From an uncultured Latescibacterota bacterium (GTDB lineage Bacteria > Latescibacterota > UBA2968 > UBA8231): a stretch of 64,000 nt of DNA. Below are positions 1 to 41,839 of the stretch, in pieces. A model generated the notes under the pieces. The model worked only from the letters and a program-made list of their open reading frames with translations, was not told where the DNA came from and made no database searches. A program made the translations under genes and the position numbers. Numbering within the stretch: position 1 is the first letter of the stretch; the number at the start of each line of letters is the position of its first letter. The stretch lies in assembly GCA_951813615.1 (NCBI GenBank), contig OX638377.1, forward strand, positions 4,762,505-4,826,504. The letters run 5' to 3'.

Positions 1-248
1 GCACGAGCTATGTTCCGCGCTTGCGTATAGGTCACCGTGCCCTGCTTGACCAGCACGGCCGCGGGATTCGCAACACCTGGAACCTTGCCCCGTGCAATGC
101 GGTCGCGCATCTGCTGCACGCAGGCTTCGTACTGATCCTTGGGAACTTCAAGGACCTGCCCTAGATAGCGGTAATTCCCAGTTCTCGAATCGAACGCTGT
201 ATGAACCGTTGCGGATGCGTTCTGGCAATAGTTCGATTGAACGCGCAA
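1..248 (-). pseudogene. Fragment of a conserved hypothetical protein, runs off the window edge; 5' part appears truncated or frameshifted
   Basis: Manual translation from TTG at 248: LRVQSNYCQNASATVHTAFDSRTGNYRYLGQVLEVPKDQYEACVQQMRDRIARGKVPGVANPAAVLVKQGTVTYTQARNIAR, open to position 1. An in-frame TGA lies just upstream. Absent from the ORF track because there is no stop in the window. Confidence 0.4.
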
Positions 249-353
249 GTCCTCAACTCTCGCTCACCGGACCGGAAATGTGTTTGTTGCGCTGAAATTG
301 TACCCTAGCCATTTCCTCAAGTCTCTCCTTACGGCAACCTACGGCCAAGCCCA

Positions 354-1820
354 CTAACCGCTGGCGAGCGCCTGCTCTAGCTGCTGGCAAAACGTCTCGA
401 TGACCTTGAGGCGGGCGAAGCGTTTGTCATTGCCCTCCACCAAGGTCCAAGGAGCAGCGGGCGTGTGGGTGCGCGCTACCATGTCGTCAACCGCGACCTC
501 GTACTCGTCCCATTTCTCTCGGTTGCGCCAGTCTTCGTCGGTGATCTTCCAGCGCTTGTGCGGAGTCACCTGCCGCGCCTTGAAGCGCCGCAGTTGCTCA
601 TCTTTGTCTATGTGAATCCAGTATTTGGCCACCACCGCGCCGTGGTCTGTTAGCTGTTCCTCAAAATCGTTGATTTCGCCGTACGCTCGCTGCCAAGCTG
701 CTTCGTCGGCAAAGCCTTCGACGCGCTCGACCAGCACTCGGCCATACCAACTGCGGTCGAAAATCACCATCCGACCTGCGCGCGGCAGGGGACGCCAAAA
801 GCGCCAAAGGTAGTGTTGGGCGTGTTCCTCTTCCGTGGGAGCAGCGATTTGGGTGATCTGATAGATACTGGGGTCGAGGGCGGCAGTCAGGCGCTGGATG
901 ATCCCGCCCTTGCCCGCGGCATCGGCCCCCTCGAAAACCAAGACGGTCGAAACGCCCTTGCGGCGCGCCTGCTGCGTTAAGCGATAGAGTCGGCCTTGGT
1001 ATCGCTCAAGCAGGGCTTGGTACTCCTTCTTGGACACCCGCTGTTCCATGTCCAACTGGGTCAGCACGTTGGGTGCGGACAGCCAGTCTGATTCGACGAG
1101 CTTGGGACGGCTCTTTTTTTTGTCTAGGCGCTGACGGATGGCGTCGCGCGCGGCGTGGCCCACCGCCAATGTGCAGTGAGGGTCGCTGCCGTCGACAACC
1201 TGCCAACGAGCGCCTCGATTATCGGTCTTTTGCAGTAAGCGGTCGGCAGCTCGTTTGAACTCGTCGTAGTGCTCCAAGCCTTCTCTCGCATCCGAGTTCA
1301 CCCGCCAGCGGGTCAGCGGGTTCTGCTCCAAATTCGCAATGCGTTGCTGCCGCGCGTCTTGGTCCAAGTGAATCCACAACTTGATCAGCAGCGCACCATC
1401 AACGACGAGCGCGTTTTCAAAGGCCGCGATGCGGTCGGCAGCACGGTCAAAGGCCGCCTCATCGCTGCGCCCATGAGCCAAGTCGCGCAGCGGGCGATCG
1501 TACCAGCCGCTCAAGTATATGCCGATGGTTCCCTTCGGCGGTAGGGAGAGCCAATAGCGCCAGTACTCTGGGCGCTCGCGCTCCTCTGCGGACGGCGGCT
1601 CAAAGGCGCAAACCGCAATGCCGCGCGCGTCCATCCACTGCCTGAGCGCGTTGCTCGCCTCGCTCGTACCAGCGCCGGCGAAGCCCCCCAAGACGACGAG
1701 AGTTGGAAATCGAGCTTGCTGCAACCGCTCTTGAGCCGCGATCAGTTCCGTGCGCAGCTCGGATTCGAGCTTCTTGTATCGGCCGTTCGGAACGCCGCGC
1801 TCCTTCTCGTTGGTTGCCAT
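354..1820 (-). CDS. pap: Polyphosphate:AMP phosphotransferase (two-domain class II PPK2)
   Basis: Two PPK2 domains. The C-domain has EGADAAGKGG, FDRSWYGRVLVERVEG and KRWKITDEDWRNREKW. Start moved to ATG 1820 (MATNEK) behind GGAGAGG. Confidence 0.9.
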   Translation of the reverse strand: MATNEKERGVPNGRYKKLESELRTELIAAQERLQQARFPTLVVLGGFAGAGTSEASNALRQWMDARGIAVCAFEPPSAEERERPEYWRYWLSLPPKGTIGIYLSGWYDRPLRDLAHGRSDEAAFDRAADRIAAFENALVVDGALLIKLWIHLDQDARQQRIANLEQNPLTRWRVNSDAREGLEHYDEFKRAADRLLQKTDNRGARWQVVDGSDPHCTLAVGHAARDAIRQRLDKKKSRPKLVESDWLSAPNVLTQLDMEQRVSKKEYQALLERYQGRLYRLTQQARRKGVSTVLVFEGADAAGKGGIIQRLTAALDPSIYQITQIAAPTEEEHAQHYLWRFWRPLPRAGRMVIFDRSWYGRVLVERVEGFADEAAWQRAYGEINDFEEQLTDHGAVVAKYWIHIDKDEQLRRFKARQVTPHKRWKITDEDWRNREKWDEYEVAVDDMVARTHTPAAPWTLVEGNDKRFARLKVIETFCQQLEQALASG

Positions 1821-1964
1821 TAATCGCCTCTCCGCATTGCTAAAAAATAAGAAAAAAATCGTTTTTTCGCCTCTTGTGTATAGCCCACAACTTGCAGTGC
1901 GCCGATTGCCGACTACAGGGCAAAACCGTACCTTTTTGCACTCTTTGGCAAAGGAGCCTTTGGC

Positions 1965-3212
1965 ATGGAAGTACTCGGTGGGCCGCTTTTTGGCGTTGCC
2001 GGAGCAGGAGAATCGCACGGGCCGGCAATTGTCACCACGGTCTTCGGCTGTCCTCCCGGTCTGTGGGTGGAGCGCGCCCAGATCCAGCACTATCTCGACC
2101 GCCGCCGCCCCGGCAGCAACAAGCTGGGCACCCCCCGGCGGGAAGACGACCAAGTCGCCCTGCTGTCCGGCCTCTACTCAGAGGATCACGACCAACTCCT
2201 ATCCGGTCCGGCGCTGCACTTGCACCTAGACGAAGATGCGACGCCGATGCACACCTATGAAGCCGGCTTCACTACGGGTGAGCCAATCGCCGCGGCCGTG
2301 CTCTCAGCCGCCAAGCGCTCGGGCGATTACAAGCAGTTCGCCGGGCCGCAGGGCCACGTCCGGCCCGGGCATACCGACTTAGTCAAGCACTACAAATCGC
2401 GGGGGTTTGTCGATGTGCGCGGCGGCGGGCGTTCCAGCTACCGCTCGACCATCTCCGATGTCATCGGCGGCACCATTGCCCGCCTCTATCTAGCCGAGCA
2501 CTTCGGCACCGCCATTTTCTCTTCGATCTGCCAAGTCGGGCCGCTGGAGACGGGCACTTCCCTAGCGGCACGAGTCGCCAAACTAACCGAAGCCGAGGGG
2601 CAGCCTCTGTCGCCCGCAACGTGTGCCGCCCTTGAAAGCGAGTTGGAACGCGGGCCGCTCCGCGCGGTGGATGCGGATTTCGCTCATCAAGCCGCCGAAC
2701 TAATTGCCAAAACCCGCAAAGAGCAGGACTCCATCGGCGCGGCGCTCGAAGTAGTGGCCGTCAACGTGCCTCCCCTCGTCGGTGAACCGCTGTACCAAAG
2801 CCTGAAGTTGCGCCTGATGGGTAGCCTCGGCGGTCTGCACGCTGTGCAAGCCTGCGAAATAGGCACGGGCAGCGCTTCGTCTGCGCGCCGAGGCAGCGAG
2901 CACAACGACCCCATCCGCACTAGCGGATACCAGAGCAACAGCCACGGCGGCTTGCTCGGCGGCGTGACCACGGGTATGCCGCTCGTATGCCGCTTGAGTT
3001 TCAAGCCCACGGCCACCATCGCCCAGCCCCAAGATTCCGTGCGCAAAGATCTAGAAGAAATTGAGTTTCAACTCGCCAAGGGCCGCCACGACCCCTGCGT
3101 AGGCGTGCGCGCTGGCGCAACCCTAGAGTCGCGGCTGGCCATCGAACTGATGAACGCCGTGCTCATGCACCAAGCGCGCTGCATGGATGCGGAAAATTTC
3201 AAGCTTTTCTAA
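1965..3212 (+). CDS. aroC: Chorismate synthase
   Basis: GESHG, RPGH, RGGGRSS, GGLLGGVTTG, FKPTATI and GRHDPC motifs. Confidence 0.92.
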   Translation: MEVLGGPLFGVAGAGESHGPAIVTTVFGCPPGLWVERAQIQHYLDRRRPGSNKLGTPRREDDQVALLSGLYSEDHDQLLSGPALHLHLDEDATPMHTYEAGFTTGEPIAAAVLSAAKRSGDYKQFAGPQGHVRPGHTDLVKHYKSRGFVDVRGGGRSSYRSTISDVIGGTIARLYLAEHFGTAIFSSICQVGPLETGTSLAARVAKLTEAEGQPLSPATCAALESELERGPLRAVDADFAHQAAELIAKTRKEQDSIGAALEVVAVNVPPLVGEPLYQSLKLRLMGSLGGLHAVQACEIGTGSASSARRGSEHNDPIRTSGYQSNSHGGLLGGVTTGMPLVCRLSFKPTATIAQPQDSVRKDLEEIEFQLAKGRHDPCVGVRAGATLESRLAIELMNAVLMHQARCMDAENFKLF

Positions 3213-3215
3213 CGC

Positions 3216-4262
3216 TCACAGCGCGGGCATCTCCACGCCCAACTCCGCCGCCACTTTGCCGATTTCATCCCAAGTGGGTTGCGGTAAATCAATGCCTTCG
3301 GCCAGCAGCCGCGCCCTAGTCTGCTGTTCGAGATCGCCGGGTGCATAGACTTTTTCAAACCCGGGCAAGGGCCGAGCCGAGCACACCCATTGGGCCATCG
3401 CTTCGACTTCGCGCTCGTACGAGTCCAAGTCGATAAAGTCCTCGATATTGATCGCTAGGACCATGATCCCGTTGCCGCCGCTGCCGCCTTCTTTAGTGCA
3501 GCCAGCATGTGAGAGCGGCCCCACCAACATTTCCACCATCATCGCCAGTCCGCTGCCCTTGTGGCCAAACTGCATGCCGCCCAACGGCAAGACGCCGGTG
3601 CCCTCGGCGTCGTCTAAATAGCGCTGGGCGTCGGTGACGGGCTGGCCTTCCTGATCTATAACCCACCCCTCGGGCATAGGCTCCTGGCGAATGTTTTTCT
3701 GCACGATTTTGCCACCGGCCACGACGGTCATGGTCATATCGAGCATGAACGGCGGACCATTCTGGCGCGGGGCGGAAAAGGCGATCGGCTCGGGACGCAG
3801 GCGGCGGTCGGCCGAGCCGAAGGGCGCGAGGAAGAGACCACCGCCATTGAGCCAAACCATGCCGATCATGCCCTTCTCGGCGATCCGCGGCGGATAGTCG
3901 CCGAGACGGCAGATATGGGTGATGTGGTTGAGACCGACAAAGCCGAAGGTGGAGTTTTGGGCTTTTTCAACGGCAATGTCGAGGGCGCGATTGACGGCGA
4001 CGATGCCGTTGGCCCCCTTGCCATTGATGACCCTGAGCACGGGGGTGTCGCGCACGACTTCGGTCTCTTCCCAGCGGACGTAGTTATTCTGCATGCCACG
4101 GGCGTAGCCGGAGACTAGCCAAGTGCCGTGCGAGTCGTGGCCGTGCAGGTGGCTTTCGACGACGTGGTCGGCGACGATAAGGGCGTCATCTGCGGGAATA
4201 CCAGTAGCGGCAAAAATGCGATAACAGAGGTCTTTGAGGATGTCGTGTTGGACTACGGGCAT
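3216..4262 (-). CDS. Ldh_2 family (malate/L-lactate/ureidoglycolate-type) oxidoreductase
   Basis: GHDSHG, LDMTMT, GVLPLGG...GHKGSGL and VYAPGD motifs. Confidence 0.85.
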   Translation of the reverse strand: MPVVQHDILKDLCYRIFAATGIPADDALIVADHVVESHLHGHDSHGTWLVSGYARGMQNNYVRWEETEVVRDTPVLRVINGKGANGIVAVNRALDIAVEKAQNSTFGFVGLNHITHICRLGDYPPRIAEKGMIGMVWLNGGGLFLAPFGSADRRLRPEPIAFSAPRQNGPPFMLDMTMTVVAGGKIVQKNIRQEPMPEGWVIDQEGQPVTDAQRYLDDAEGTGVLPLGGMQFGHKGSGLAMMVEMLVGPLSHAGCTKEGGSGGNGIMVLAINIEDFIDLDSYEREVEAMAQWVCSARPLPGFEKVYAPGDLEQQTRARLLAEGIDLPQPTWDEIGKVAAELGVEMPAL

Positions 4263-4289
4263 GAAAAGTCCTTTAGATGGGTGTGCTTC

Positions 4290-5372
<1,083 letters not shown>

Positions 5373-5393
5373 CTTCCGTAGATACTCCTTTTG

Positions 5394-5440
5394 CTAGGGT
5401 TTAACTAGGGTTTAATAGCAGGTAAAAACTTAGGTAAAAA
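5394..5440. repeat. Short direct repeats upstream of carA (CTAGGGTTTAA x2; AGGTAAAAA x2)
   Basis: Perfect 11-bp tandem at 5394-5404/5405-5415; AGGTAAAAA at 5420 and 5432. Confidence 0.75.
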
Positions 5441-5461
5441 AAAGCGCCCTGAACAGGCGGC

Positions 5462-6511
5462 TCATTCCGGTGCCGAATCGGTCAGGTCTTGGCGCTCCTG
5501 CCGCGCTCGTTCCTGCATATCGACGGCCGGATCGAATTCGCCGACGATTTCCTGGCCGACAATTTCTTCAATCACGTCCTCTAGGGTAACAATGCCGGCG
5601 AAGCCACCGTATTCATCGACGACGGCAAAAAGGTGCTCGCGCCGCTGGATGAATTCTTCGAGCAGGCGGCTGGCCCGCGCCGACTCGGGCACCGAATGGA
5701 TGGAGCGGCTCACCTCAGAGAGTTTAGCTTGGTCGCGGCCATCGGCCAAGGCGCTGAACGCATCGCGCCGCAGCACCAAGCCGACGATGTTTTCCCGCTC
5801 TCCCTGATAGAGGGGCACCCGGCTGTGGTCCCAGCCACCGGACTGCTCGCGGGCCTCAGCCAAGGTCAAGTCTCGGTCGAGGCAGTGGACCACTGTGCGC
5901 GGGGTCATAATATCGCGCGCCCGCAACTCGTCGAGCTTGAGGATGTTTTGGATGACGCGCTCTTGGTCGTGGGAGATGGTGCCGGAGTGACGGCTCATCC
6001 GCGCGATAATCTCAATCTCTTCCGGCACGACCTCCGGCACGTCGGGTGCCCCAGCGGTGATGAACTGAACGATGAATTTGTTGAGCCAGATAAAGGGCGC
6101 GAACAGCCATACCAGCCATTGGATCGGGCGAGCTATAAACCGGGCGAGAACGCGGGCATGCACCACCCCCACCGTCTTGGGAAGAATCTCCGTAAAGATG
6201 AGTACCGCCAGCGAGAAGGCGATGATAAAGTACGTCTCCCAAGTCCGCGGAAATACTCCGACAAAGGCGGCACCGGCGATGGCAGCACCACCAGTATGGG
6301 CCAAGGTATTGAGCGTGAGGATGGCTGAGATAGGACGCTGGATATCCGCATGCAAGCTCTTGAGGATCTTACCCGAAGTGCGCCCTTGGTCGGCCAGCAT
6401 TTCGATCTGACTGGCGGGCAGCGAGTAGAGCGCAGCTTCCAAGAGCGAACAAACACAAGATACAACGAGGACGACGCTGACGGATAGGATTAGCTCAAAT
6501 TCAGGAGTCAT
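5462..6511 (-). CDS. CNNM/CBS-domain (HlyC/CorC family) membrane protein
   Basis: CSLLEAAL, EILPKT, DIMTPR, HSRVP and VVDEYGG...TLEDVIEEIVG motifs. Confidence 0.9.
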   Translation of the reverse strand: MTPEFELILSVSVVLVVSCVCSLLEAALYSLPASQIEMLADQGRTSGKILKSLHADIQRPISAILTLNTLAHTGGAAIAGAAFVGVFPRTWETYFIIAFSLAVLIFTEILPKTVGVVHARVLARFIARPIQWLVWLFAPFIWLNKFIVQFITAGAPDVPEVVPEEIEIIARMSRHSGTISHDQERVIQNILKLDELRARDIMTPRTVVHCLDRDLTLAEAREQSGGWDHSRVPLYQGERENIVGLVLRRDAFSALADGRDQAKLSEVSRSIHSVPESARASRLLEEFIQRREHLFAVVDEYGGFAGIVTLEDVIEEIVGQEIVGEFDPAVDMQERARQERQDLTDSAPE

Positions 6512-32578: not shown

Positions 32579-32998
32579 ATGCCAAACTGCGACTACAGTC
32601 TTACGTGGTATCACGGCTCTCAGCAAGAGTTGACGAAACTTCAGGTCGGTAGTTCGATCACACAGAATAGGAATGTGGCGAAAGCGTTCTCACATAGACC
32701 ATCACTTGTTTCTATGTCTGACGAAGGTGAGTCTCTATCTGACAAACTCAGGATTAAGCACAACGGTATGACGCCCGGTTATCTCTATGTCGTCTCCGAT
32801 GACATCGGTCCCGACGATGTGTATCCCCATCCCCACCCGGCAAATGCCGATCGCTGGGAGTGGCTGACTAACCGGGAATTGAAACTAAAACTCATCGAAC
32901 AGACTATCGCAACGGACGAAGAACGTCTGACAGACGAAGAAATCGCAGAGATAAAGCAGAAACAGAAGGAAAGAGGCGAGGAGTCATTCGCGGGGTGA
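32579..32998 (+). CDS. Hypothetical protein, possible ADP-ribosyltransferase fold
   Basis: WYHGS, GYLYVV and WEWL..REL pattern, reminiscent of H-Y-E/Arr-like ARTs. Confidence 0.55.
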   Translation: MPNCDYSLTWYHGSQQELTKLQVGSSITQNRNVAKAFSHRPSLVSMSDEGESLSDKLRIKHNGMTPGYLYVVSDDIGPDDVYPHPHPANADRWEWLTNRELKLKLIEQTIATDEERLTDEEIAEIKQKQKERGEESFAG

Positions 32999-33037
32999 TC
33001 CTACCAAAAGAAAAAAATAAATATAATGAGTGAACGT

Positions 33038-33074
33038 AAAACAGGGCCTCAAACCGAAGTTTGAGGCCCTGTTT
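33038..33074 (-). terminator. Intrinsic (probably bidirectional) terminator
   Basis: AAACAGGGCCTCAAAC-TTCG-GTTTGAGGCCCTGTTTT on the minus strand; cUUCGg loop. Confidence 0.85.
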
Positions 33075-33098
33075 CCCTAGCGCGTAGTACAGTAGTTG

Positions 33099-36000
33099 CT
33101 ACTTGAGCAGCAGCATCTTCTTGACTTCGCGGAACTCGCTACCCGCTTGCAGGCGGTAGAAATATATCCCCGACGACAAGCTGTGCCCACTGTCGTTGGT
33201 CGCCTCCCATTCCACCGCGTAGCGACCGGCGCTCTGATGCTCGGCAACCAGCGTCCGCACCGGCTGACCAACCACATTATACACGGTCAGTTCCACATCC
33301 GCCGCCTGCGGCAACGCATACTGGATCGTCGTCGCCGGGTTGAACGGGTTCGGGAAGTTGTCCGCCAGCGCAAAGGTGGCCGGCAGCGTCTGCAACGACA
33401 GCGACGCGCTCGCGCCGTTGGCGTCCGTAACCGCGTACGTATATGCGGTTTCGGCTGCCGCCTGCGGCGTACCCGCAATGGTCCGCGTGGCTGCGTCAAA
33501 CGCGAGGCCCGCCGGCAAGGCTGGCGACAGGCTATACGTCAGCGGGGCAGTGCCGCCCGATGCCTCCGGCAGCACAATGCCTTCCACGCGCTGGCCAACG
33601 ACGAATTCGCGAATTTCAACCAAGTCGTGCGAAGCCGTCGGCACGATCTTACCAGAAGGGAAAAGATTGAAGAAATCGTCAAAACTTATCCCCTGATTGA
33701 CCGTGATGGTGAAGGTCAACGCAGCGGCGTTCCCAGCGCTGTCGATCACCGTGTAGATGATGATCTGCGCGTCAGTCACTTCCGAAGGGGTGCCCGAAAC
33801 CGTCCGCGTGGCCGCGTCAAACGCCAAGCCGGCCGGCAGAGCCGAAAGGCTGTACCGCAGCGGAGCAGTGCCGCCCGAGGCCTCCGGCAGCACGAGAGGG
33901 GTAATCGGCGTGTTAGCAGTGTACGTTTGATTTGGGACTGCGATGCCGTCGGCGAAAGCGAGGGCCGAATCATCCGGCTCCGGCATCTCCGGCGTCTCTG
34001 CTTCGTCGCTCAGCGTGATCTCTGCTTCGCTCCCCGTCAATCCGTTAATCACACCGATCAGCTTGATGGTCTCGTTGCCCTCCGCTAGATCGTCGTCAAT
34101 TGCGTGGATCGAGAACTGCGTGGTCCCCTCTCTCGCGCCGGCTAGAATCGTAATCAGCGGATTGAATATCGCGGAGTAATCTACATCGCGCGTCGCTGTT
34201 GACGCATCACCAATGGCCACGATCACGGTTGCATTCTCTGTCAAGGTATCCCCGTTCAGCGTGGCGGTCACCGTAACGTCGGTTTGACCGCTTCCCTCGA
34301 CTATCGAGTCCGGAGCCACCGATAGCGTGATGGAGGTACTCGGCGTTTCGTCATCGACGATTTTGATGTCCCTCATTAGCGTCGCACCAGAGGCGAACGT
34401 AGCCCGCACGCCGATCGCTCTCAGGCCGTCCTCCTCAGTGTTGTTAATCGGGGTGAGCGTGAGGGTCGCCCTCCCAGTGGTAGTACCGACCGGAATGGTG
34501 ACGACCGCCCCCAAGGAGGCAATGTAGTCCACATCGCGCACGGCCGCCGTGCCTTCGCTTGGAGCTTCAAGCGTGAACGTCACGGTCTCGGCTACGACTC
34601 TGGCCGCCGGCAAGGTCACGGTCAACGAAACTGACGTCGTCCCAGCGTCCTCGCGAATTTCCGCCGGCGTCACCTCTAGCTGCACTTCCGCCTCTGGTTC
34701 CGGAGGCGTCACCTCACCATCACCCTCATCGACCGTAATGGTGAAGAGGGCCAACACAGTGACTTGCCTATCGTTGTCGACCACCGTGTAGATGATGAGG
34801 ATCTCGCCGTCGGTCGCCGCGGTAGGCGTGCCCGAAATCGTCCGCGTGGCCGCGTCAAACGACAAGCCCGCCGGCAGGCTCGAGACGCTGTACGTCAGCG
34901 GAGCAGCGCCGCCCGTTGCCTCCGGCAGCACCAAATCGGCAATCGCCGTGCCAACCGTGTACTCTTGGGCGGCGACCTCACCGGTAGTCGGGGTCGTCGG
35001 ATCCGTCGGCGTTGTTGGCTGCGTACCGTCGTCTGCATCTTTCAGCGTTATCGTCGCTCCGACTACATCCAGCACTTCTTCGACGTCGTCTTCATCTATA
35101 CCTGTGGGTTTACTCGCACTAGTCACGCCGATCTTCTCGGCCCCTTCCTCCTCGGCATCGGAGACGGGGGTGAGGGTGAACGTCACCGTCCCTGATACCG
35201 CGCCGCCCGGAATCACCAAGGTGCTCGGGAGGGATGCGTAGTCTATATCGCGCGTCGCAGCCACGTCAGGCGCCACCTCCGCTGTGCCATCGCCATCAAG
35301 ATCGTTACTAAAGGTCAAGGGCACGTACACGTTATCTTTGAACACCTTCCCGTTCAAGGTGCCGGTCACCGTGACCTCGATCTCACCATCACTCTCACTT
35401 ATCTCGTCCGGACTCACCTCTAGCGTGATCGAATCACTAATCGTGTCATCGTCGGTAATCAGGATGCCTGCATCGAGGGTTCTGCCTGCAACGTGCGCAA
35501 ACACCCTGAAAGCCCGGAGCCCATCTTCTCTGTTGTTGTTAATGGGAGTGACGGTCATCGTCGTCGTCCCTACGGTATCGCCCCTCGGGATGACGACAGG
35601 CCGCGCACTCACCTCGTAATCTATCCCGCGGTCCGCATCATCCGCATCAGCGAAACGGTCGTCGTCTGCCGCTAGTGCTCTTACGTCACTGTCGTCGTCC
35701 GCAAAAGTGAACAGCACCGTCTCGTCCGTCGTCAAAGCGTTCTGCAAGGAAACTTCCAGCGTGATCTCCTTCGCCCCAGCGTCCTCGCGGACCGAGGAAG
35801 GCATCGCTATGAGCCCCTTTATCGCCCTCTCAGGACCACCCGTTATCTGGATTCTACTCGGATTAACAGGTATGGGATCGACAGAGGGGGTTTGGGCCGT
35901 ACTCGTGGCGGAACCAGGTTCAAACAGGATATAGCCGGCTCCTTCGTTCTGGGGGGTGATGGTAATCGTCGTCGTCCCCGACACTTGGCGCCGTCGAATG

Positions 36001-37166
36001 GTTATCGATCCCAGTTCCCCCCTAGTAACATAATCTACATCGCGCATCGCTTTACCCGGAGCCGTCGTATTATTAATAAGCACGGGTAAGGTCACATGTT
36101 CTTCTAGCGTCTTTCCATTCAGGGTGGCGGTCACTTCAATCTCGGTTGTAGCATCGGTCTTAGCTAGAGTGGCATCCGAAAACGAGAGATTGATTGCCGT
36201 GCTCGCCTTGTCGGCGTCAACCAGCCGAATATCGGTTGACCCGCCAGTCTCGCCGGGGGTCCTGATCGTGACCAGCAGATCGTCGTCGGGGATTGTAGCG
36301 TGATTAGTATTGCGAATGGGGGTGAATCTGATCGTCCCCGTCGCCTCTTTCTCACCCTCCTCAATCGTGATCGGGAAAAATTCCATGCGGAAGCGACTAT
36401 TGTGCCCCGTCTGATTGGAGCCGAACCACAAGTTCACAGACTCGTCCTGTGTCACCTCCGTATCATCGCCAACTTTGACGTTCACCTCGATCTCGGTCGC
36501 ACGAGTAACGTCCTCGCGCACACTACTGGGATTCACCGACAGAATATAGTCCGGCTCTACCGCTATCTGCTTGGCGAAATACTCAATTTCATTATTACCA
36601 GTATCATCCGCATCAGCGACCGTCACAGCTATCTTTACCCAATAGAATCCCGCTTCCGTGCTCGGGCTCAAGGTCGAGTTCAGAAGATCAACAATATAGG
36701 TGGCTTTGCGGGTAGATGCAGTTATCGTCTCGGGAGCATCGAGAGTAGGGACAGGGCTCAACAAGCTTGTCGCGCCACCACCAGCACCTTGATCAATGAC
36801 AGCAGGAGTCTCCCCTTTATGAAACGTCAACGCGTATTCTGTGGCTTCCGCCCCATTTCCCATAGGAACCGCATCACTCATGGGCATGCCGAAATTCTTT
36901 GAATAAGATGTGCTCCAACTCACGAAAATCGAATCGGCTGTACCGACGGCTGGCTCGCCTCCAGCCGCTACTTCTCGCGTATCAAGTGCATAAGTTACCT
37001 GCAAATAGGGCTCAGTGGCATGCGTATGCGCTCCACTGTTATGGCCTGTCGGCAGAGGGTTTGCTGTATCAGCCACAGCCTCCCCGCTCCACCCCAGCAC
37101 CAAACCAACAGTCAGCAGCCAAGGCACATAGGCCAGCCGCCTCATTAACAACTTCGTGTGTGTCAT
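33099..37166 (-). CDS. Large exported multi-domain protein: signal peptide, Calx-beta-like repeats, three putative Ig (He_PIG-like) repeats, C-terminal FlgD-Ig/T9SS-type-A-like domain
   Basis: Signal peptide ending AVA, repeated V.P.S..E...ATRDVDY units, 3x LPEA.GG.APL.YS...LPAGL.FDAATRT..GTP, C-terminal NFPNPFNP...YFYRL...KKMLLLK. Confidence 0.85.
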   Translation of the reverse strand: MTHTKLLMRRLAYVPWLLTVGLVLGWSGEAVADTANPLPTGHNSGAHTHATEPYLQVTYALDTREVAAGGEPAVGTADSIFVSWSTSYSKNFGMPMSDAVPMGNGAEATEYALTFHKGETPAVIDQGAGGGATSLLSPVPTLDAPETITASTRKATYIVDLLNSTLSPSTEAGFYWVKIAVTVADADDTGNNEIEYFAKQIAVEPDYILSVNPSSVREDVTRATEIEVNVKVGDDTEVTQDESVNLWFGSNQTGHNSRFRMEFFPITIEEGEKEATGTIRFTPIRNTNHATIPDDDLLVTIRTPGETGGSTDIRLVDADKASTAINLSFSDATLAKTDATTEIEVTATLNGKTLEEHVTLPVLINNTTAPGKAMRDVDYVTRGELGSITIRRRQVSGTTTITITPQNEGAGYILFEPGSATSTAQTPSVDPIPVNPSRIQITGGPERAIKGLIAMPSSVREDAGAKEITLEVSLQNALTTDETVLFTFADDDSDVRALAADDDRFADADDADRGIDYEVSARPVVIPRGDTVGTTTMTVTPINNNREDGLRAFRVFAHVAGRTLDAGILITDDDTISDSITLEVSPDEISESDGEIEVTVTGTLNGKVFKDNVYVPLTFSNDLDGDGTAEVAPDVAATRDIDYASLPSTLVIPGGAVSGTVTFTLTPVSDAEEEGAEKIGVTSASKPTGIDEDDVEEVLDVVGATITLKDADDGTQPTTPTDPTTPTTGEVAAQEYTVGTAIADLVLPEATGGAAPLTYSVSSLPAGLSFDAATRTISGTPTAATDGEILIIYTVVDNDRQVTVLALFTITVDEGDGEVTPPEPEAEVQLEVTPAEIREDAGTTSVSLTVTLPAARVVAETVTFTLEAPSEGTAAVRDVDYIASLGAVVTIPVGTTTGRATLTLTPINNTEEDGLRAIGVRATFASGATLMRDIKIVDDETPSTSITLSVAPDSIVEGSGQTDVTVTATLNGDTLTENATVIVAIGDASTATRDVDYSAIFNPLITILAGAREGTTQFSIHAIDDDLAEGNETIKLIGVINGLTGSEAEITLSDEAETPEMPEPDDSALAFADGIAVPNQTYTANTPITPLVLPEASGGTAPLRYSLSALPAGLAFDAATRTVSGTPSEVTDAQIIIYTVIDSAGNAAALTFTITVNQGISFDDFFNLFPSGKIVPTASHDLVEIREFVVGQRVEGIVLPEASGGTAPLTYSLSPALPAGLAFDAATRTIAGTPQAAAETAYTYAVTDANGASASLSLQTLPATFALADNFPNPFNPATTIQYALPQAADVELTVYNVVGQPVRTLVAEHQSAGRYAVEWEATNDSGHSLSSGIYFYRLQAGSEFREVKKMLLLK

Positions 37167-37194
37167 TACTCTACCTCCCCAGGTTATGAGTAAT
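37165..37194 (-). promoter_or_regulatory. Leader hairpin covering the SD and start codon
   Basis: ATTACTC-ATA-ACCT-GGGG-AGGT-A-GAGTAAT(G); second copy at 37441-37470. Confidence 0.6.
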
Positions 37195-37215
37195 TACAGA
37201 TGATTTAAGATGTGA

Positions 37216-37252
37216 GAGCTAGGGCCCCGCCTCGAATTGGAGACCCTAGCTC
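37216..37252 (-). terminator. 3' hairpin of the remnant gene (same family as the 33038 hairpin)
   Basis: GAGCTAGGG...CCCTAGCTC stem; lacks a U-tract. Confidence 0.55.
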
Positions 37253-37268
37253 GCGAACTCGCTGCGTG

Positions 37269-37368
37269 CTTACTTGAGCAGCAGCATCTTCTTGGTTTCG
37301 AGAAACTCACCGCCTGCCTCCAAGCGGTAGAAATACATCCCCGAAGACAAACTGTGACCGCTGTCGTT
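37269..37368. repeat. 100-bp direct repeat, copy 1 (copy 2 at 38381-38480)
   Basis: CTTACTTGAGCAGCAGCATC...GACCGCTGTCGTT; one mismatch by manual alignment. Confidence 0.9.
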
Positions 37369-37442
37369 GGCCGCGTACTGACCGACGATATTATGGACAG
37401 TCAACTTCACGTCCGTCGCATCAATAACTCTGTGTGTAGCAT
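37270..37442 (-). pseudogene. Collapsed chimeric remnant of an exported-protein gene
   Basis: Starts MLHTELLMRR (cf. MTHTKLLMRR at 37166), then jumps out of frame into DVKLTVHNIVGQYAANDSGHSLSSGMYFYRLEAGGEFLETKKMLLLK*. Confidence 0.88.
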
Positions 37443-37496
37443 TACTCTACCTCCCCAAGTTAAGAGTAATTCTATAGGTTAGTTCAAATATAGCTA

Positions 37497-37563
37497 ACAG
37501 GGCCTCAAATTTCAATCAGAGGCCCTATCTTTACAAACGCGCTGTGCAGCGAGTGCTACTCGA
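37497..37563 (-). terminator. 3' hairpin and orphan 3' UTR homologous to that of the 33099 gene
   Basis: ACAGGGCCTCAAA...GAGGCCCT...CGCG...TGCTACTCGA aligns with 33041-33106. Confidence 0.6.
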
Positions 37564-37569
37564 CGAGGA

Positions 37570-38004
37570 TCACAATGCCTCAATTCGATATACGTGCCGC
37601 TGGCCAATAAGTGACACAACGCTTGTTGGGCGATCGACAATTACTGCAAATAGCTCCAGAATATCCCGCCCCAAAACACTCATATCAAGTGCCTCAAACT
37701 GAGTGAAGGCAGCATACTCGCCGCGAAATGCAACGGTCCTGCCCCCATCTCGCTTAAGGCGAATCTGCGTCGCGACCGTCACAGACTCTGCAATTCCCCC
37801 GACACCGCCGATATTCATCTGAGTTGGAGCTTGCGGAAAGCCGAGGATCTCAAAGATAGCTGCGCTGAAAACGGTGCGGTCCGCACCTGTATCCACCAAA
37901 AACGGAGCAGGTTCCCATACCCCGCTGGCGGCCTGGATCGCACCGCGGATCACAGGGCGCACTATGCCGTCGTCATATGCGTACCATTCGCCATCGATGC
38001 GCAT
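37570..38004 (-). CDS. Retropepsin-like (clan AA) aspartyl protease
   Basis: FLVDTGADRT catalytic motif, GGVGG flap, VLGRDIL. Confidence 0.87.
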   Translation of the reverse strand: MRIDGEWYAYDDGIVRPVIRGAIQAASGVWEPAPFLVDTGADRTVFSAAIFEILGFPQAPTQMNIGGVGGIAESVTVATQIRLKRDGGRTVAFRGEYAAFTQFEALDMSVLGRDILELFAVIVDRPTSVVSLIGQRHVYRIEAL

Positions 38005-38290
38005 AAATGCGCGCTACCTTGTCTTTTGGTATATACTGGACGAAACGGCCTTTATCCTCAGGGTGCACGGCTGTCGCCAGTGCAAGAGCTTCCTTAGCTG
38101 TAGCAGCTTCAAAGAGTTCCTCGCCGGCAATACATATACACCGGCCTCGATACTTAGCATAAATCTCTGAAGCATGGACCTGTAGCCAAGCTGCATTGCG
38201 GTCGAATTGCTCGCGCTGCGCCTTGGCTTCCGCAAGTTGGGTCGAATCCGTTATCTCCTCAATGACGATCGGAGGAAACTGTTCGCTCAT
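37973..38290 (-). CDS. Small DUF5678-like protein
   Basis: N..WL....EIY.KYRGRCICIAGEELF pattern. ATG 38290 follows GAAGGAG. Overlaps the protease gene by 32 nt. Confidence 0.65.
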   Translation of the reverse strand: MSEQFPPIVIEEITDSTQLAEAKAQREQFDRNAAWLQVHASEIYAKYRGRCICIAGEELFEAATAKEALALATAVHPEDKGRFVQYIPKDKVARIYAHRWRMVRI

Positions 38291-38381
38291 GGTCTCGGTC
38301 TCCTTCGGAAAGGAAAGCCCCGGCCAGCACGCCAGCCGGGGCAAAAGAAAAAACCCAACCTTTCAACAGGTCAGTGACCAC

Positions 38382-40838
38382 TTACTTGAGCAGCAGCATC
38401 TTCTTGGTTTCGAGAAACTCACCGCCTGCCTCCAAGCGGTAAAAATACATCCCCGAAGACAAACTGTGACCGCTGTCGTTCGTCGCCTCCCATTCCACGA
38501 CGTAGCGACCCGCGCTCTGATGCTCGGCAACCAGCGTCCGAACTTCCTGACCAACCACATTATACACGGTCAGTTCCACGTCCGCCGCCTGCGGCAGTGA
38601 ATACTTGATCGTCGTCGCCGGGTTGAACGGGTTCGGATAGTTGTTGGCCAACGCGAACACTTCCGGACGCGTCTGCAACTGCACCGGCGCCGGCAACGCC
38701 AGACGGTTGAAGCCGAACTCGCTGTCATACGTCTGGTTGTCGGTGATCTCAATGACCGTATTCTCGATCTCCGTCTTGGCGCGGAAGACCAAGCTCAGCG
38801 CCACCTCGCCCTCGGAGATCACATCCCCGTGAGCGACCAGCGCCAACACGCCGCCTTCGTCGCTCAGCACCTGCGGCGCGGCCAATTCGCTGCCACCCAG
38901 CGGCTGATCGGTCAGCACCTCGACGAACTCCAGCTTGTCGGCCTCATACTGCACCTGCAAGCCGTAGCCCTTGATCGCGGCGAAATCCGCCAAGCTCACG
39001 TCGAGGACAAAGTCCTCACCCACGATCGGCATGGCCGTCCGCGCGTCCAGATACATCCGCGCACCATCGTTGAGGCCGGCGAACATGGGCACGCGCTTGC
39101 CCGCGGCCGCCGTGCTGCGACCGAAGTTGTCGGCAAAGACGAAGAAATCCTCAAAGTCGATCATCGCATTGGGTGCCAAGTCAAACGCAGGATCAAACCC
39201 AGTGTCTTCCGCCGTCAGACCGAAGAGATCAGCGAGAATGAAGAAGTCGTCGAAGCCCACGTGATTATCGGCACCGAACAGACCGAAGATCGCGAGACCT
39301 TCGCTATCGACCACTATATTGCGCACGGCCATCGCCGTATGCTCGATCTCGGAACCAGTCTCGTTGTCCAAGTCGAAGGGCCGCACCTGATAGGTGTAGC
39401 GCACGCCATGGAGCGCCGTCTCATCGACAAAGGCCGTAACGCCTGCATCGACCTGCCCGACTAGGACGAACTCGTCTTCGCCCGCGGCGCGGCGATAGAT
39501 GTTGTAGCCATGGACGCCGACAACCGGCTCAGTCGCAGCCGGGCCGACAGCTCCAGCAACAGCGCCCTGCAAGAGCTGGTCAGACGGCGAGCGCGTCCAC
39601 GTCAGGGCGATGCGGCTGCCCTCGTCGTTGGGCGCATCCAAGACGCTGAACGACGGCACAGCGTCCGGCGCGATGTCGTCAATAGCGCGCACCAGATTTT
39701 CCGTGACGGTGATCTCCGACTGCTGCAGCACGCCTTCGACGCCCTTCAGCTTCGGAGCCACGCCTTGAGCGTAAGCGAGTGCTTCCGGCAGCAGCGTGGC
39801 GATCACCGGTGCATCACCGGCTTGCGCCGCTTCCATGCTGGCCATCAGCGTCTCGGCCATCTGCTCATAGGGCTGGTTCAGGTTTTCAGCACTGACGAAC
39901 GCGGCCTTAGCGGTAACAATGAGCGTGGTTCGACCGTCGCGCTCGGCGGCAATGCCCCAGCGGGTGGCGACATTGTCGAGCGTAGCGACGATGGTGCGGC
40001 CAAGCTGCACGCCCGGCACGGCATCTACCTCGGCCCAAGGAATCATTTCATTGTTCAGCGAGGGTATTTCGCGGAAGATGCGATAGCCGTCCAGCGTATC
40101 GTGGTCTTCCGACAAGGGCCAAGTCAGCATCAAAAAGCCGCCTTGGTCACCACTGCCGTCGGCACCCTTGTAATCTTGGGCCAACAGAATGTTGGGAGCA
40201 TCCAACGGAGGCGGCACCACCTCGATGGTGAACGGTAGCATTGAAGCACTCGCGCCATTAACGTCCATAACTGTGATCGTGACTATGGCCGTACCTACCT
40301 CGGAGGGCGTACCCGAAATTGTCCGCGTGGCCTCGTCATACGATACGCCAGCGGGAAGCCCTGACACGCTGAGTGTATACGGCGGAGTCCCCCCAAATTG
40401 CTGCAACGTAGAGTCGTCCGGCAGCAACAGCGGCTCAATCGCCGCGCCTAGCTCATACGTCCCTTCGGCCATCGGAGCATCTGAATCATCGGACGACTCC
40501 ATCACCTCGATGGTGAACGGTGGCAGTGGAGCACTCGCGCCATTAGCGTCCGTAACCACGATCGTGACTGTGGTCGTACCTACCTCGGAGGGCGTACCCG
40601 AAATTGTCCGCGTGGCCTCGTCATACAATACGCCAGCGGGAAGCCCTGACACGCTGAGTGTATATGGCGGGGTCCCCCCTCCCAACTCCTGCAACGTGGC
40701 GTCGTCCGGCAGCGGCAGCGGCTCAATCGCCGCGCCGGCCTCATACGTCAGTTCATTGGCCAAGGCGGTATGGGCGGGCAAGAAACCGCTTACTCCCAAA
40801 AGAGCCAGAAAAACGACAAACAACGATGTTTGCTTCAT
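38382..40838 (-). CDS. Exported modular protein: two putative Ig repeats, FN3-like, dockerin/EF-hand-like, cohesin-like and C-terminal FlgD-Ig/T9SS-like domains
   Basis: Signal peptide ending ALA, duplicated GLPAGV.YDEATRTISGTP unit, GYNIYRR..YTYQVR, VGFDDFFILADLFG/IDFEDFFVFADNFG, GYGLQVQYEADKLEFV, NYPNPFNP...KKMLLLK. Confidence 0.85.
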   Translation of the reverse strand: MKQTSLFVVFLALLGVSGFLPAHTALANELTYEAGAAIEPLPLPDDATLQELGGGTPPYTLSVSGLPAGVLYDEATRTISGTPSEVGTTTVTIVVTDANGASAPLPPFTIEVMESSDDSDAPMAEGTYELGAAIEPLLLPDDSTLQQFGGTPPYTLSVSGLPAGVSYDEATRTISGTPSEVGTAIVTITVMDVNGASASMLPFTIEVVPPPLDAPNILLAQDYKGADGSGDQGGFLMLTWPLSEDHDTLDGYRIFREIPSLNNEMIPWAEVDAVPGVQLGRTIVATLDNVATRWGIAAERDGRTTLIVTAKAAFVSAENLNQPYEQMAETLMASMEAAQAGDAPVIATLLPEALAYAQGVAPKLKGVEGVLQQSEITVTENLVRAIDDIAPDAVPSFSVLDAPNDEGSRIALTWTRSPSDQLLQGAVAGAVGPAATEPVVGVHGYNIYRRAAGEDEFVLVGQVDAGVTAFVDETALHGVRYTYQVRPFDLDNETGSEIEHTAMAVRNIVVDSEGLAIFGLFGADNHVGFDDFFILADLFGLTAEDTGFDPAFDLAPNAMIDFEDFFVFADNFGRSTAAAGKRVPMFAGLNDGARMYLDARTAMPIVGEDFVLDVSLADFAAIKGYGLQVQYEADKLEFVEVLTDQPLGGSELAAPQVLSDEGGVLALVAHGDVISEGEVALSLVFRAKTEIENTVIEITDNQTYDSEFGFNRLALPAPVQLQTRPEVFALANNYPNPFNPATTIKYSLPQAADVELTVYNVVGQEVRTLVAEHQSAGRYVVEWEATNDSGHSLSSGMYFYRLEAGGEFLETKKMLLLK
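40218..40749 (-). repeat. Intragenic duplication of the Ig unit (period 285 bp)
   Basis: Near-identical DNA at 40218-40461 and 40503-40749. Confidence 0.85.
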
Positions 40839-40993
40839 GATTCTCTCCTTAATTAATGAATGTAGCAGGCGCTTGCTCGACGAAGAGCGCCCGCAAGCGG
40901 CTGGCTCTTGACGACTGCCCTAGGATAAGTTCCTTATATACTTATTTAACAAAGATAATAATCACAAGTACTTTTTCGCAATCTGGCAATCGT

Positions 40994-41839
40994 ATGATTA
41001 TCGACGTCCACAGCCACACTTGGCAATATCCCGAGCATTTCACCGACCAATTTTGCCAACAAGCAACCCAGGTGGCCAAAGCCAACGAGGCCCTCGATTT
41101 AACCGTAACCTACGCGGCCTATCGCACGGGCGCACAAGCCTGCGGCAAGACCATCGTCTTCGGCGGCAAGGCCCGGCGTTCCGGCATCTGGGTCGACGAC
41201 CGCTACGTCGCCGATTACGTAGCCGCGCACCCAGAAGCACTCATCGGCTTCCTCTCGCTCGACCCCACCCAAGACGGCTGGGAGCAGGAAATGGCCTACG
41301 GGCACCAAGAGCTCGGCCTCAAGGGCATCAAGCTGCTCTCCATGTACGCCGGCTTCTATCCGCACGACCAAAGCCTCGACCCGCTGTGGCGCTACGCCGC
41401 CGAGCACAGCCTGCCCGTGCTGTTGCACACCGGCACCACCTTCGTTTCCCAAGCCCCGCTCGACTGCACCTTGCCGCGCCATCTCGACCCGGTGGCCATC
41501 CGCTTCCCAGCGGTCAAAATCATCATGGCCCACCTAGCGCATCCCTACGAGGGCGAGTGCGTAGCCGTCATCCGCAAACACCCCAACGTGTACGCCGACG
41601 TCAGCGCCCTGCACTACCGGCCTTTCCAGCTCTACCACAGCCTGATGCTGGTGCAGGAATACGGCGTCTGGCACAAATTGCTCTTTGGCAGCGACTATCC
41701 CTTTACGACGATCGACGCCTCCATTGAAGGTCTGCACGGCTTGAACAAAATGCTCGACGGCACGGCCCTGCCGCGCTTGGACGAGCGCGAGATCGACGCC
41801 TTAATCCACCGCGACAGCCTCGACATTTTAGGGCTTTAA
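40994..41839 (+). CDS. Amidohydrolase_2 family protein
   Basis: IIDVHSH, LHTG, IMAH, NVYADVSA, LLFGSDYP. Confidence 0.88.
   Translation: MIIDVHSHTWQYPEHFTDQFCQQATQVAKANEALDLTVTYAAYRTGAQACGKTIVFGGKARRSGIWVDDRYVADYVAAHPEALIGFLSLDPTQDGWEQEMAYGHQELGLKGIKLLSMYAGFYPHDQSLDPLWRYAAEHSLPVLLHTGTTFVSQAPLDCTLPRHLDPVAIRFPAVKIIMAHLAHPYEGECVAVIRKHPNVYADVSALHYRPFQLYHSLMLVQEYGVWHKLLFGSDYPFTTIDASIEGLHGLNKMLDGTALPRLDEREIDALIHRDSLDILGL

Follow-up and report, generated by a model that had tools for sequence, protein, structure and literature searches.

The window analyzed here, a stretch of 64,000 nt from an uncultured Latescibacterota bacterium, carries two large genes for predicted exported proteins, A and B, and a gene remnant, R, that end in the same C-terminal tail (G000 denotes the genome that holds the window; coordinates are positions in the window unless labeled G000). 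We consider it very probable that they belong to a tandem family of surface proteins of the type IX secretion system (T9SS), and that their ends are alike through function and occasional gene conversion, an ordinary form of concerted evolution among tandem paralogs, with no dedicated shuffling device. In this view, paralogous genes for large, T9SS-exported cell-surface proteins once formed a tandem array, of which half survives at the locus. Each unit would comprise a leader with a ribosome-binding site (RBS), a Sec signal peptide, a variable body of He_PIG- and Calx-beta-like domains, a C-terminal domain (CTD) of ∼88 residues, a 3′ untranslated region (UTR), and a terminator hairpin. The units would stem from duplication before the radiation of the genus, and the bodies would then have diverged under weak constraint at fixed positions, A, B, D, and E. 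Two processes would have kept the ends alike: strong purifying selection on the export signal and, with statistical support, exchange between the repeated ends in episodes of gene conversion and of unequal homologous recombination.

According to the open reading frame (ORF) listing, the whole locus, including its 3′UTRs and hairpins, lies on the minus strand. Transcription runs from high to low coordinates, in the order A, two hairpins, a small gene (p105), a retropepsin-like protease gene, hairpin 3, R, hairpin 2, B, and hairpin 1. Gene A (38382-40838) encodes 818 aa with two He_PIG domains, a middle part without family, a weak cohesin-like stretch, and a T9SS type A CTD; gene B (33099-37166) encodes 1,355 aa with the family signal peptide, β-sandwich repeats, three He_PIG domains, and a T9SS type A CTD. 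The Pfam scores for He_PIG are 82 bits in A and 88 bits in B, and B has one Calx-beta domain over cut-off, as do two of the six family proteins scanned in total. Both N termini look like Sec signal peptides in that basic residues are followed by a hydrophobic core and then by an A-x-A-like motif, that of A being unlike the family signal peptide of B, R, and the paralogs C, D, E, and F. The preliminary description of this DNA had called the bodies of the two intact genes different; this is not wholly so, as both contain He_PIG, but the proteins can be aligned in the He_PIG repeats only and are otherwise strongly diverged. Residues ∼520-700 of A (38900-39300) hold paired D/F-rich repeats (VGFDDFF..., IDFEDFF...) and then the cohesin-like stretch (PF00963, 18.5 bits, below cut-off), an arrangement that resembles a dockerin/cohesin-type pair.

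The tails of A and B form a 300-nt direct repeat (33100-33399 and 38383-38682) with 85% identity. BLASTN aligns the two at 88% over 254 nt (E = 1e-71; tail matches range from 1e-48 to 1e-71) and R with the A tail at 99% over 99 nt; a tail repeat of 106 nt is present in three copies (82, 100, and 97%). The CTDs of A (38385-38648, the last 88 codons) and B (33102-33365) score 37.4 and 32.2 bits, respectively, against TIGR04183 (cut-off 23), so that the common tail reported previously for A, B, and R, and its likeness to a T9SS export signal, both hold: the tails of A and B are predicted T9SS type A sorting domains. Against Pfam Por_Secre_tail (cut-off 27), A reaches 29.5 bits and B, at 25.8 bits, falls just short. 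The TIGR04183 score of R (18.7 bits) is below cut-off, as would be expected for a decayed copy. The leader shared by B and R, also reported previously, extends over 59 nt at 83% identity (37137-37195 vs. 37413-37471), with a 32-nt core at 94%; the leader of B (37167-37200, minus strand) places AATTACTCATAACCTGGGGAGGTAGAGTA ahead of the ATG and is common to R and, in part, to paralog C.

The homology of the ends includes noncoding DNA. Hairpins 1, 2, and 3 are mutually homologous, as the preliminary description had stated, and each is preceded in the alignment by a homologous 3′UTR stretch. The 3′UTR of B with hairpin 1 spans 33035-33098 (hairpin, 33039-33074; 16-bp perfect stem, −30.3 kcal/mol, z = −6.5); hairpin 2, with the family 3′UTR of R, lies at ∼37215-37254 (−24.5 kcal/mol, z = −4.5, no U-tract); and a further family 3′UTR with hairpin 3 spans 37496-37560 (hairpin, 37496-37529; −20.0 kcal/mol, z = −3.2). 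A U run (UUUUAC) follows hairpin 1 only, again as described before, and none of the three family hairpins has the five T in eight of the terminator scan rule. Hairpin 1, which BLASTN finds to be 92% identical to the hairpin after paralog D, is likely the terminator of B. By alignment, the family 3′UTR and hairpin lie downstream of the stop codon in B, C, D, E, and R, and the same element follows the protease gene. Because this hairpin-3 UTR and hairpin directly follow the A stop in four relatives (G004, G007, G013, and G018), hairpin 3 is A's own terminator, displaced by a two-gene insert. Two terminator-like hairpins directly 3′ of the A stop (38374-38355 and 38342-38317, minus strand; joint fold −31.4 kcal/mol) had been overlooked, together with the p105 and protease genes between A and R; the hairpins are followed by GTTTTTTCTT and TTTCC, respectively, and sit at the 5′ edge of the inserted DNA. 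An Rfam scan of 32900-41000 (E ≤ 1) returned only isrL at chance level (17.3 bits vs. a gathering score of 35), and thus no known RNA family explains the 3′UTR and hairpin.

G000 is a single contig of 6.27 Mb (59% GC), in which BLASTN finds tail similarity at the nucleotide level in seven places only: A, B, and R in the window, D and E at 6.185-6.192 Mb, F at 2.717 Mb, and C. Further copies of the tail and leader therefore exist outside the locus, in line with the preliminary description, which would have taken their absence as a refutation. The signal peptide and ribosome-site leader are common to B, C, D, E, F, and R. Paralog C (1,920 aa) reads in frame across the contig ends (G000 6265288-6265692 joined to 1-5358), which supports a closed circular chromosome. 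A is 73% identical in amino acid sequence to residues 1143-1920 of C (the C-terminal 786 residues); the body of B is 37% identical to that of D and 42% identical to that of F.

A maximum likelihood tree built from 41 tails (267 nt), with the R copies excluded, is not sorted by gene position, and three within-genome clades are starred: A/B/D of G005 (99/98), B/D of G004 (96/95), and x/A of G004 (100/97). Approximately unbiased (AU) tests reject a single clade for the B tails (P = 0.0019), the A tails (P = 0.0057), and the D tails (P = 0.026). By distance, the nearest neighbor of a tail (n = 41) is its positional ortholog in 20 cases, a paralog of the same genome in 7, and a tail of another position in another genome in 10, with 4 ties; the value for G002_A is invalid because of an indel. 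Synonymous divergence (dS) between paralogs was compared between the tail and the 300 codons upstream; it is 0.09 vs. 0.84 for B-D, 0.39 vs. 0.77 for B-E, 0.73 vs. 0.95 for B-F, and 0.68 vs. 1.06 for D-F, while A and C, paralogous over the whole length of A, show no drop in the tail (0.35 vs. 0.28). Between orthologs the tail dS is about equal to the body dS, so the tails are under no special synonymous constraint. From −180 to +53 around its stop, B of G000 has more in common with D of that genome than with the B ortholog of G010, and the noncoding part (+1..+53) is 94% identical between B and D vs. 76% in the B ortholog comparison. Judged by these comparisons, the ends recombine, and they do so episodically.

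Selection acts differently along the genes, with a ratio of nonsynonymous to synonymous divergence (dN/dS) of ∼0.1-0.16 in the tails and 0.36-0.64 in the body of B. Function as an export signal would suffice to explain the constancy of the C terminus (∼0.1 vs. 0.4-0.6 in the B body). G004, a 4.2-Mb genome of the same genus, encodes eight full-length C-type paralogs (loci L037-L043 and L019) of ∼1,880-1,945 codons, seven of them dispersed, with variable N termini and almost the same sequence in their C-terminal halves. Averaged over pairs, identity is 44-69% in the first 700 alignment columns and reaches 97% at the C terminus; from N to C terminus dN/dS falls from ∼0.7 to 0.08 and dS from ∼0.5 to 0.25. 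The polarity of a constant C terminus and a variable N terminus, introduced in the preliminary description as Rhs/CDI arrays in reverse, thus is real at the scale of the family, in the main as a gradient of selection; the analogy itself is descriptive only. Such a gradient would fit a protein that is anchored by its C-terminal end.

Remnant R (37270-37476, minus strand) consists of an RBS (GGGGAGG), an ATG at 37442, 10 signal-peptide codons, a TGA, and a decayed CTD with an internal deletion; it has leader and tail without any variable segment. The junction between signal-peptide codon 10 and the CTD falls in a short GCGxCGG match. As the orthologous R has this same junction in G000, G010, and G013, the remnant is inherited and old. 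Over the last 102 nt, R of G000 is 3 and 1 nt away from the A tails of G000 and G010, respectively, and 13 nt away from its own ortholog in G010; its tail has therefore been overwritten by an A tail in the G000 lineage. R would be a dead family member that lost its body by deletion at the GCGxCGG match before its tail was replaced in this way. In G002, G011, and G012, an R-type leader and N terminus (MLHRKLL...) directly follow hairpin 3 and run into the B body. Recombination between the two leaders would yield just such a fusion and would remove R's tail along with hairpin 2.

A DNA search gave matches in 30 of 31 genomes including G000, and in 18/18 genomes of the same genus; the array was taken from the 11 of these 18 in which hits cover the locus on long contigs. 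The same order is found in all 11 relatives: a TonB-dependent receptor gene on the opposite strand, then A, B, and D, and in some of them E. For 32 of their 35 array genes, the best G000 match of the body is the gene at the same position, which shows that there has been no passenger exchange between positions. Three genes depart from this rule: one is an additional D-like gene of G001, and the other two belong to G004, which has a long, C-like form in position A and a short frame of 217 codons. B has positional orthologs in 11/11 relatives (47-69% aa identity). An amidohydrolase gene (40856-41839) stands between A and the TonB-dependent receptor in G000 and 6 of the 11 relatives and is missing in G009-G013.

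In G000 the array is cut after B. Relative to G010, and to the B-D adjacency common to all 11 relatives, G000 has an inversion of ∼1.39 Mb with one breakpoint in the B-D spacer at 33035-33040 (G000 4795539-4795544), the outer edge of hairpin 1, where homology with the relatives' arrays stops, and the other at G000 ∼6184054-6185044. The inversion has parted D-E from A-R-B, so that the two blocks stand 1.39 Mb apart and on opposite strands. No repeat common to both breakpoints was found, and BLAST of hairpin 1 gave no copy at the second.

The A-B spacer is a variable slot, filled in G000 by an unrelated module of p105 and the protease gene between the A stop and A's original terminator. Across 12 genomes its length ranges from 49 to 1817 nt and its contents vary; with the leader fusions, this means that the locus is not invariant among relatives, in line with the variability foreseen in the preliminary description. 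p105 (37973-38290, minus strand) encodes 105 aa from an ATG at 38290 behind GGAG, or 123 aa from a TTG at 38344, and is without family; its sole Pfam match, DUF7921, is below cut-off (21.8 bits vs. 27). The retropepsin-like aspartic protease gene (37570-38004, minus strand; 144 aa, DTGA motif) overlaps p105 by 32 nt and matches RVP (26.9 bits; cut-off 20.7) and Asp_protease_2 (26.6 bits; cut-off 24.3). PADLOC and PHROGs gave only weak matches for p105, the protease, and ORF 32579-32998, namely one of the protease to the candidate defense protein PDC-M08B (PADLOC, E = 9e-5) and one to phrog_29594 (E = 3e-4). No second copy of p105, the protease, or ORF139 was found in G000 by tblastn; single-copy in this genome, the module is not a multicopy mobile element here. 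The pair looks like a self-contained two-gene module.

Both genes are intact in 3 of the 12 genomes (G000, G010, and G013) and decayed in others, as a deletion fusion in G012 and as fragments in G011 and G001. Other small genes occupy the A-B spacers of relatives (L009, L010, L015, and L016). They include an ORF of 75-79 aa with a coiled coil and a C-terminal membrane segment in G001, G002, and G011, an ORF of 73 aa in G009, and an ORF of 304 aa in G011 (L016 5486-6400) with a weak match to the Rpn family of recombination-promoting nucleases (18.2 bits vs. a cut-off of 52). G013 has three successive leader-to-hairpin frames between A and B (L018, oriented ∼4983-6224). In the first of these, a third family leader supplies the ATG with which p105 begins, and downstream of the protease gene come the final bases of a family tail and then the 3′UTR with a hairpin.

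The family is set in a genome rich in such tails. TIGR04183 has 142 matches in G000 at E ≤ 0.01, 112 of them over cut-off by our count, and the genome encodes PorU (NF033707, 630 bits; cut-off 420) and SprA (TIGR04189, 606.6 bits summed; cut-off 200). After Sec export, the CTD would direct proteins of the A and B type through SprA, and PorU would remove the CTD and anchor the protein by its new C terminus. In that case the protein would expose its fast-evolving N-terminal part and have the conserved C-terminal part close to the cell. No paper combining Latescibacter* with T9SS or type IX secretion was found in the searched literature.

Several points weigh against a T9SS-exported family with episodically converted ends. 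The secretion components toward which the preliminary description had pointed were recovered in part: in addition to PorU and SprA, a PorV-like gene directly adjoins PorU, with a score of 149.7 bits that is under the cut-off of 250. Profile models detect none of PorK/L/M/N (GldK-N) over cut-off in G000, a result that is uninformative on absence because the models are built mainly from Bacteroidota and control genomes were silent for three of them. The best TIGR03525 match reaches 81.7 bits (cut-off 350) in the C-terminal half only, and TIGR03513, TIGR03517, TIGR03523, and PF12081 gave no match in G000, from which absence does not follow. The motor-ring proteins may have diverged beyond the reach of these models, or the system may be unlike that of Bacteroidota. 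A complete T9SS in G000 is thus putative, and we infer export, CTD cleavage, and surface anchoring by analogy with Bacteroidota biology. As for recombination, the tail alignment is short (267 nt) with 12 of 38 inner branches weak, and the groups for the AU tests were set by gene position yet with the tree seen beforehand. Paralog body dS is unreliable at 25-30% aa identity, so that only the pairs at 45-58% are informative. The direction and number of conversion events are not fixed by the tail data.

The preliminary description had read the region as a dedicated surface-protein shuffling locus, with leader and tail as recombination arms that allow passengers to be swapped, lost, or gained. Part of this survives: the ends do recombine, as tail phylogeny, dS, the conversion of R, and the leader fusion indicate. 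The differences of the A-B spacer among the 12 genomes and the existence of a leader-plus-tail remnant without a body also speak for shuffling, as does the p105/retropepsin pair of G013, set between a family leader ATG and a family 3′UTR and hairpin like a replaced passenger. A contig of public run X16 contains a joint that skips R; this joint has short sides, however, and may derive from a related organism, as may most joints. Against it, the passengers stay in place, with 32 of 35 bodies in 11 genomes being positional orthologs. No silent cassettes with variable content were found, each intact member has its own leader and terminator, and R, which carries no passenger, is old. The 54/54 chosen ORFs of the window scanned against Pfam include no integrase, transposase, recombinase, or invertase, confirming the absence of a recombinase stated before; RecO is the sole recombination protein among them. 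The dS between paralog tails (0.3-0.5) is as large as that between species, which means that exchange is rare on an evolutionary scale. The runs, compared as contigs, are blind to rare variants. We regard a dedicated shuffling device as quite improbable.

The opposite explanation, that no recombination took place and the tails are alike solely through protein-level purifying selection while the bodies diverged after old duplications, is extremely doubtful. It agrees with the low dN/dS of the tails (∼0.1), with the high conservation of the CTD protein over the 41 tails, and with the 20/41 tails that are nearest to their positional ortholog. It does not account for a paralog tail dS far under that of the adjacent coding sequence in B-D, for the 94% identity of the noncoding 3′UTR and hairpin of B and D, for the rejection of positional tail clades by the AU tests, or for the likeness of the nonfunctional R tail to A tails over that of its own ortholog. 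Recent whole-gene duplications followed by very fast, positively selected divergence of the bodies, such that the tails show the true young age, would fit the raised dN/dS of the bodies (0.36-0.64 in B; ∼0.7 in the N-terminal 700 residues of the G004 paralogs) and the similar tail and body dS of A and C. This is very unlikely, as positions A, B, and D have orthologous bodies in 11/11 relatives, so that the duplications predate the genus, and as the paralog body dS is also high where the alignment is usable (0.77-1.06).

The chance that the repeated tails, leaders, and hairpins are an assembly artefact, finally, is negligible. Short-read contigs do break at repeats, and summed depth piles up on the tails. 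The same architecture and R junction are nevertheless present in the independently assembled G010 and G013, and a 969-nt contig of run X17 covers 37442-38410 with 0 differences; this agreement confirms the structure. The copies differ by 1-18% and hence are no collapsed duplicates. Four public runs were compared, all as contigs, in which rare junctions are not visible; three runs of one coded organism label contain 64-77% of the sampled words. An X16 contig has a frame-breaking deletion of 221 nt in the protease gene (37648-37868). The run contigs thus confirm the assembly and show decay of the insert.

Beyond the tandem family with converted ends, the leader-to-terminator frames might be reusable expression slots. 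Exchange at the ends would then let a symbiont population reassort or replace their contents, including foreign genes (as in G013), and diversify host-facing tips. We hold this to be unlikely; if true, it would be a new route to surface variation in symbionts. A host or phage partner could be imposing diversifying selection on the N-terminal repeat tips (dN/dS ∼0.7 in G004). A candidate for this partner is the Calx-beta-based adhesion system of a sponge host (PMC5400394), an idea weakened by the finding of Calx-beta over cut-off in only two of six family proteins. The idea is weakened also because a sponge habitat is no more than hinted at, by run X2, which carries a sponge metagenome label and contains 23% of the sampled words; neither it nor the small word shares in runs with sponge or marine metagenome labels are used here as habitat evidence.

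The locus documents cleanly, and in numbers, how T9SS cargo genes outside Bacteroidota evolve as mosaics: signal peptide, CTD, 3′UTR, and terminator are homogenized among paralogs, and the bodies, presumably exposed, diverge without leaving their places on the chromosome. It indicates that an uncultured Latescibacterota lineage invests heavily in CTD-tagged surface proteins (142 CTD matches, PorU, and SprA). The repeated gene ends seed structural change; examples are the remnant, the leader fusions, the changing content of the spacer slot, and the inversion, one breakpoint of which adjoins a family terminator. Constant C-terminal tails are to be expected in such genomes without any cassette mechanism.

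Among known systems, Rhs/CDI orphan arrays also occur in tandem with truncated remnants that share a constant junction region. Here the polarity is opposite, searches of A, B, p105, and the protease turned up neither toxin nor immunity families, and the remnant is dead, with no displaceable tip. In the cassette variation of pilE/pilS, vlsE, and msp2, conserved flanks surround a variable segment that is exchanged by gene conversion. The bracketing flanks and gene conversion are common to our locus, which differs in having no single expression site and no silent donor cassettes; R, the only promoter-proximal fragment, is without variable content. Both the cassette systems and the Rhs/CDI arrays fail in their defining features at the A-B locus.

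The streptococcal emm/mrp/enn genes, for wall-anchored surface proteins whose exposed N terminus varies, are co-oriented tandem paralogs that combine constant modules for secretion (5′) and anchoring (3′) with a variable distal part, and neighboring genes undergo exchange. Tandem paralogs with constant ends are found here too, and the N-to-C gradient of the eight G004 paralogs (44-69% to 97%) is a further likeness. The ends are of another kind, however, with a T9SS CTD and PorU in place of LPXTG and sortase A, and there is no sign here of immune selection or of chimeric genes between positions. The closest parallel described so far comes from Porphyromonas gingivalis, in the RgpA/Kgp/HagA family. 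Our locus departs from it in belonging to Latescibacterota, in having He_PIG/Calx-beta-like bodies instead of gingipain adhesin domains, in its conserved tandem array, in a homogenized tract that includes the 3′UTR and terminator, and in PorK-N that the models do not detect. The P. gingivalis genes, according to PMC5266723, encode a leader, adhesin domains in modular arrangement, and a CTD that is conserved, and the paralogs recombine. The two families have in common a Sec leader (putative in A and B), a modular adhesin-type body, a C-terminal sorting domain of ∼80 residues, shared modules, and rearrangement or recombination among their members.

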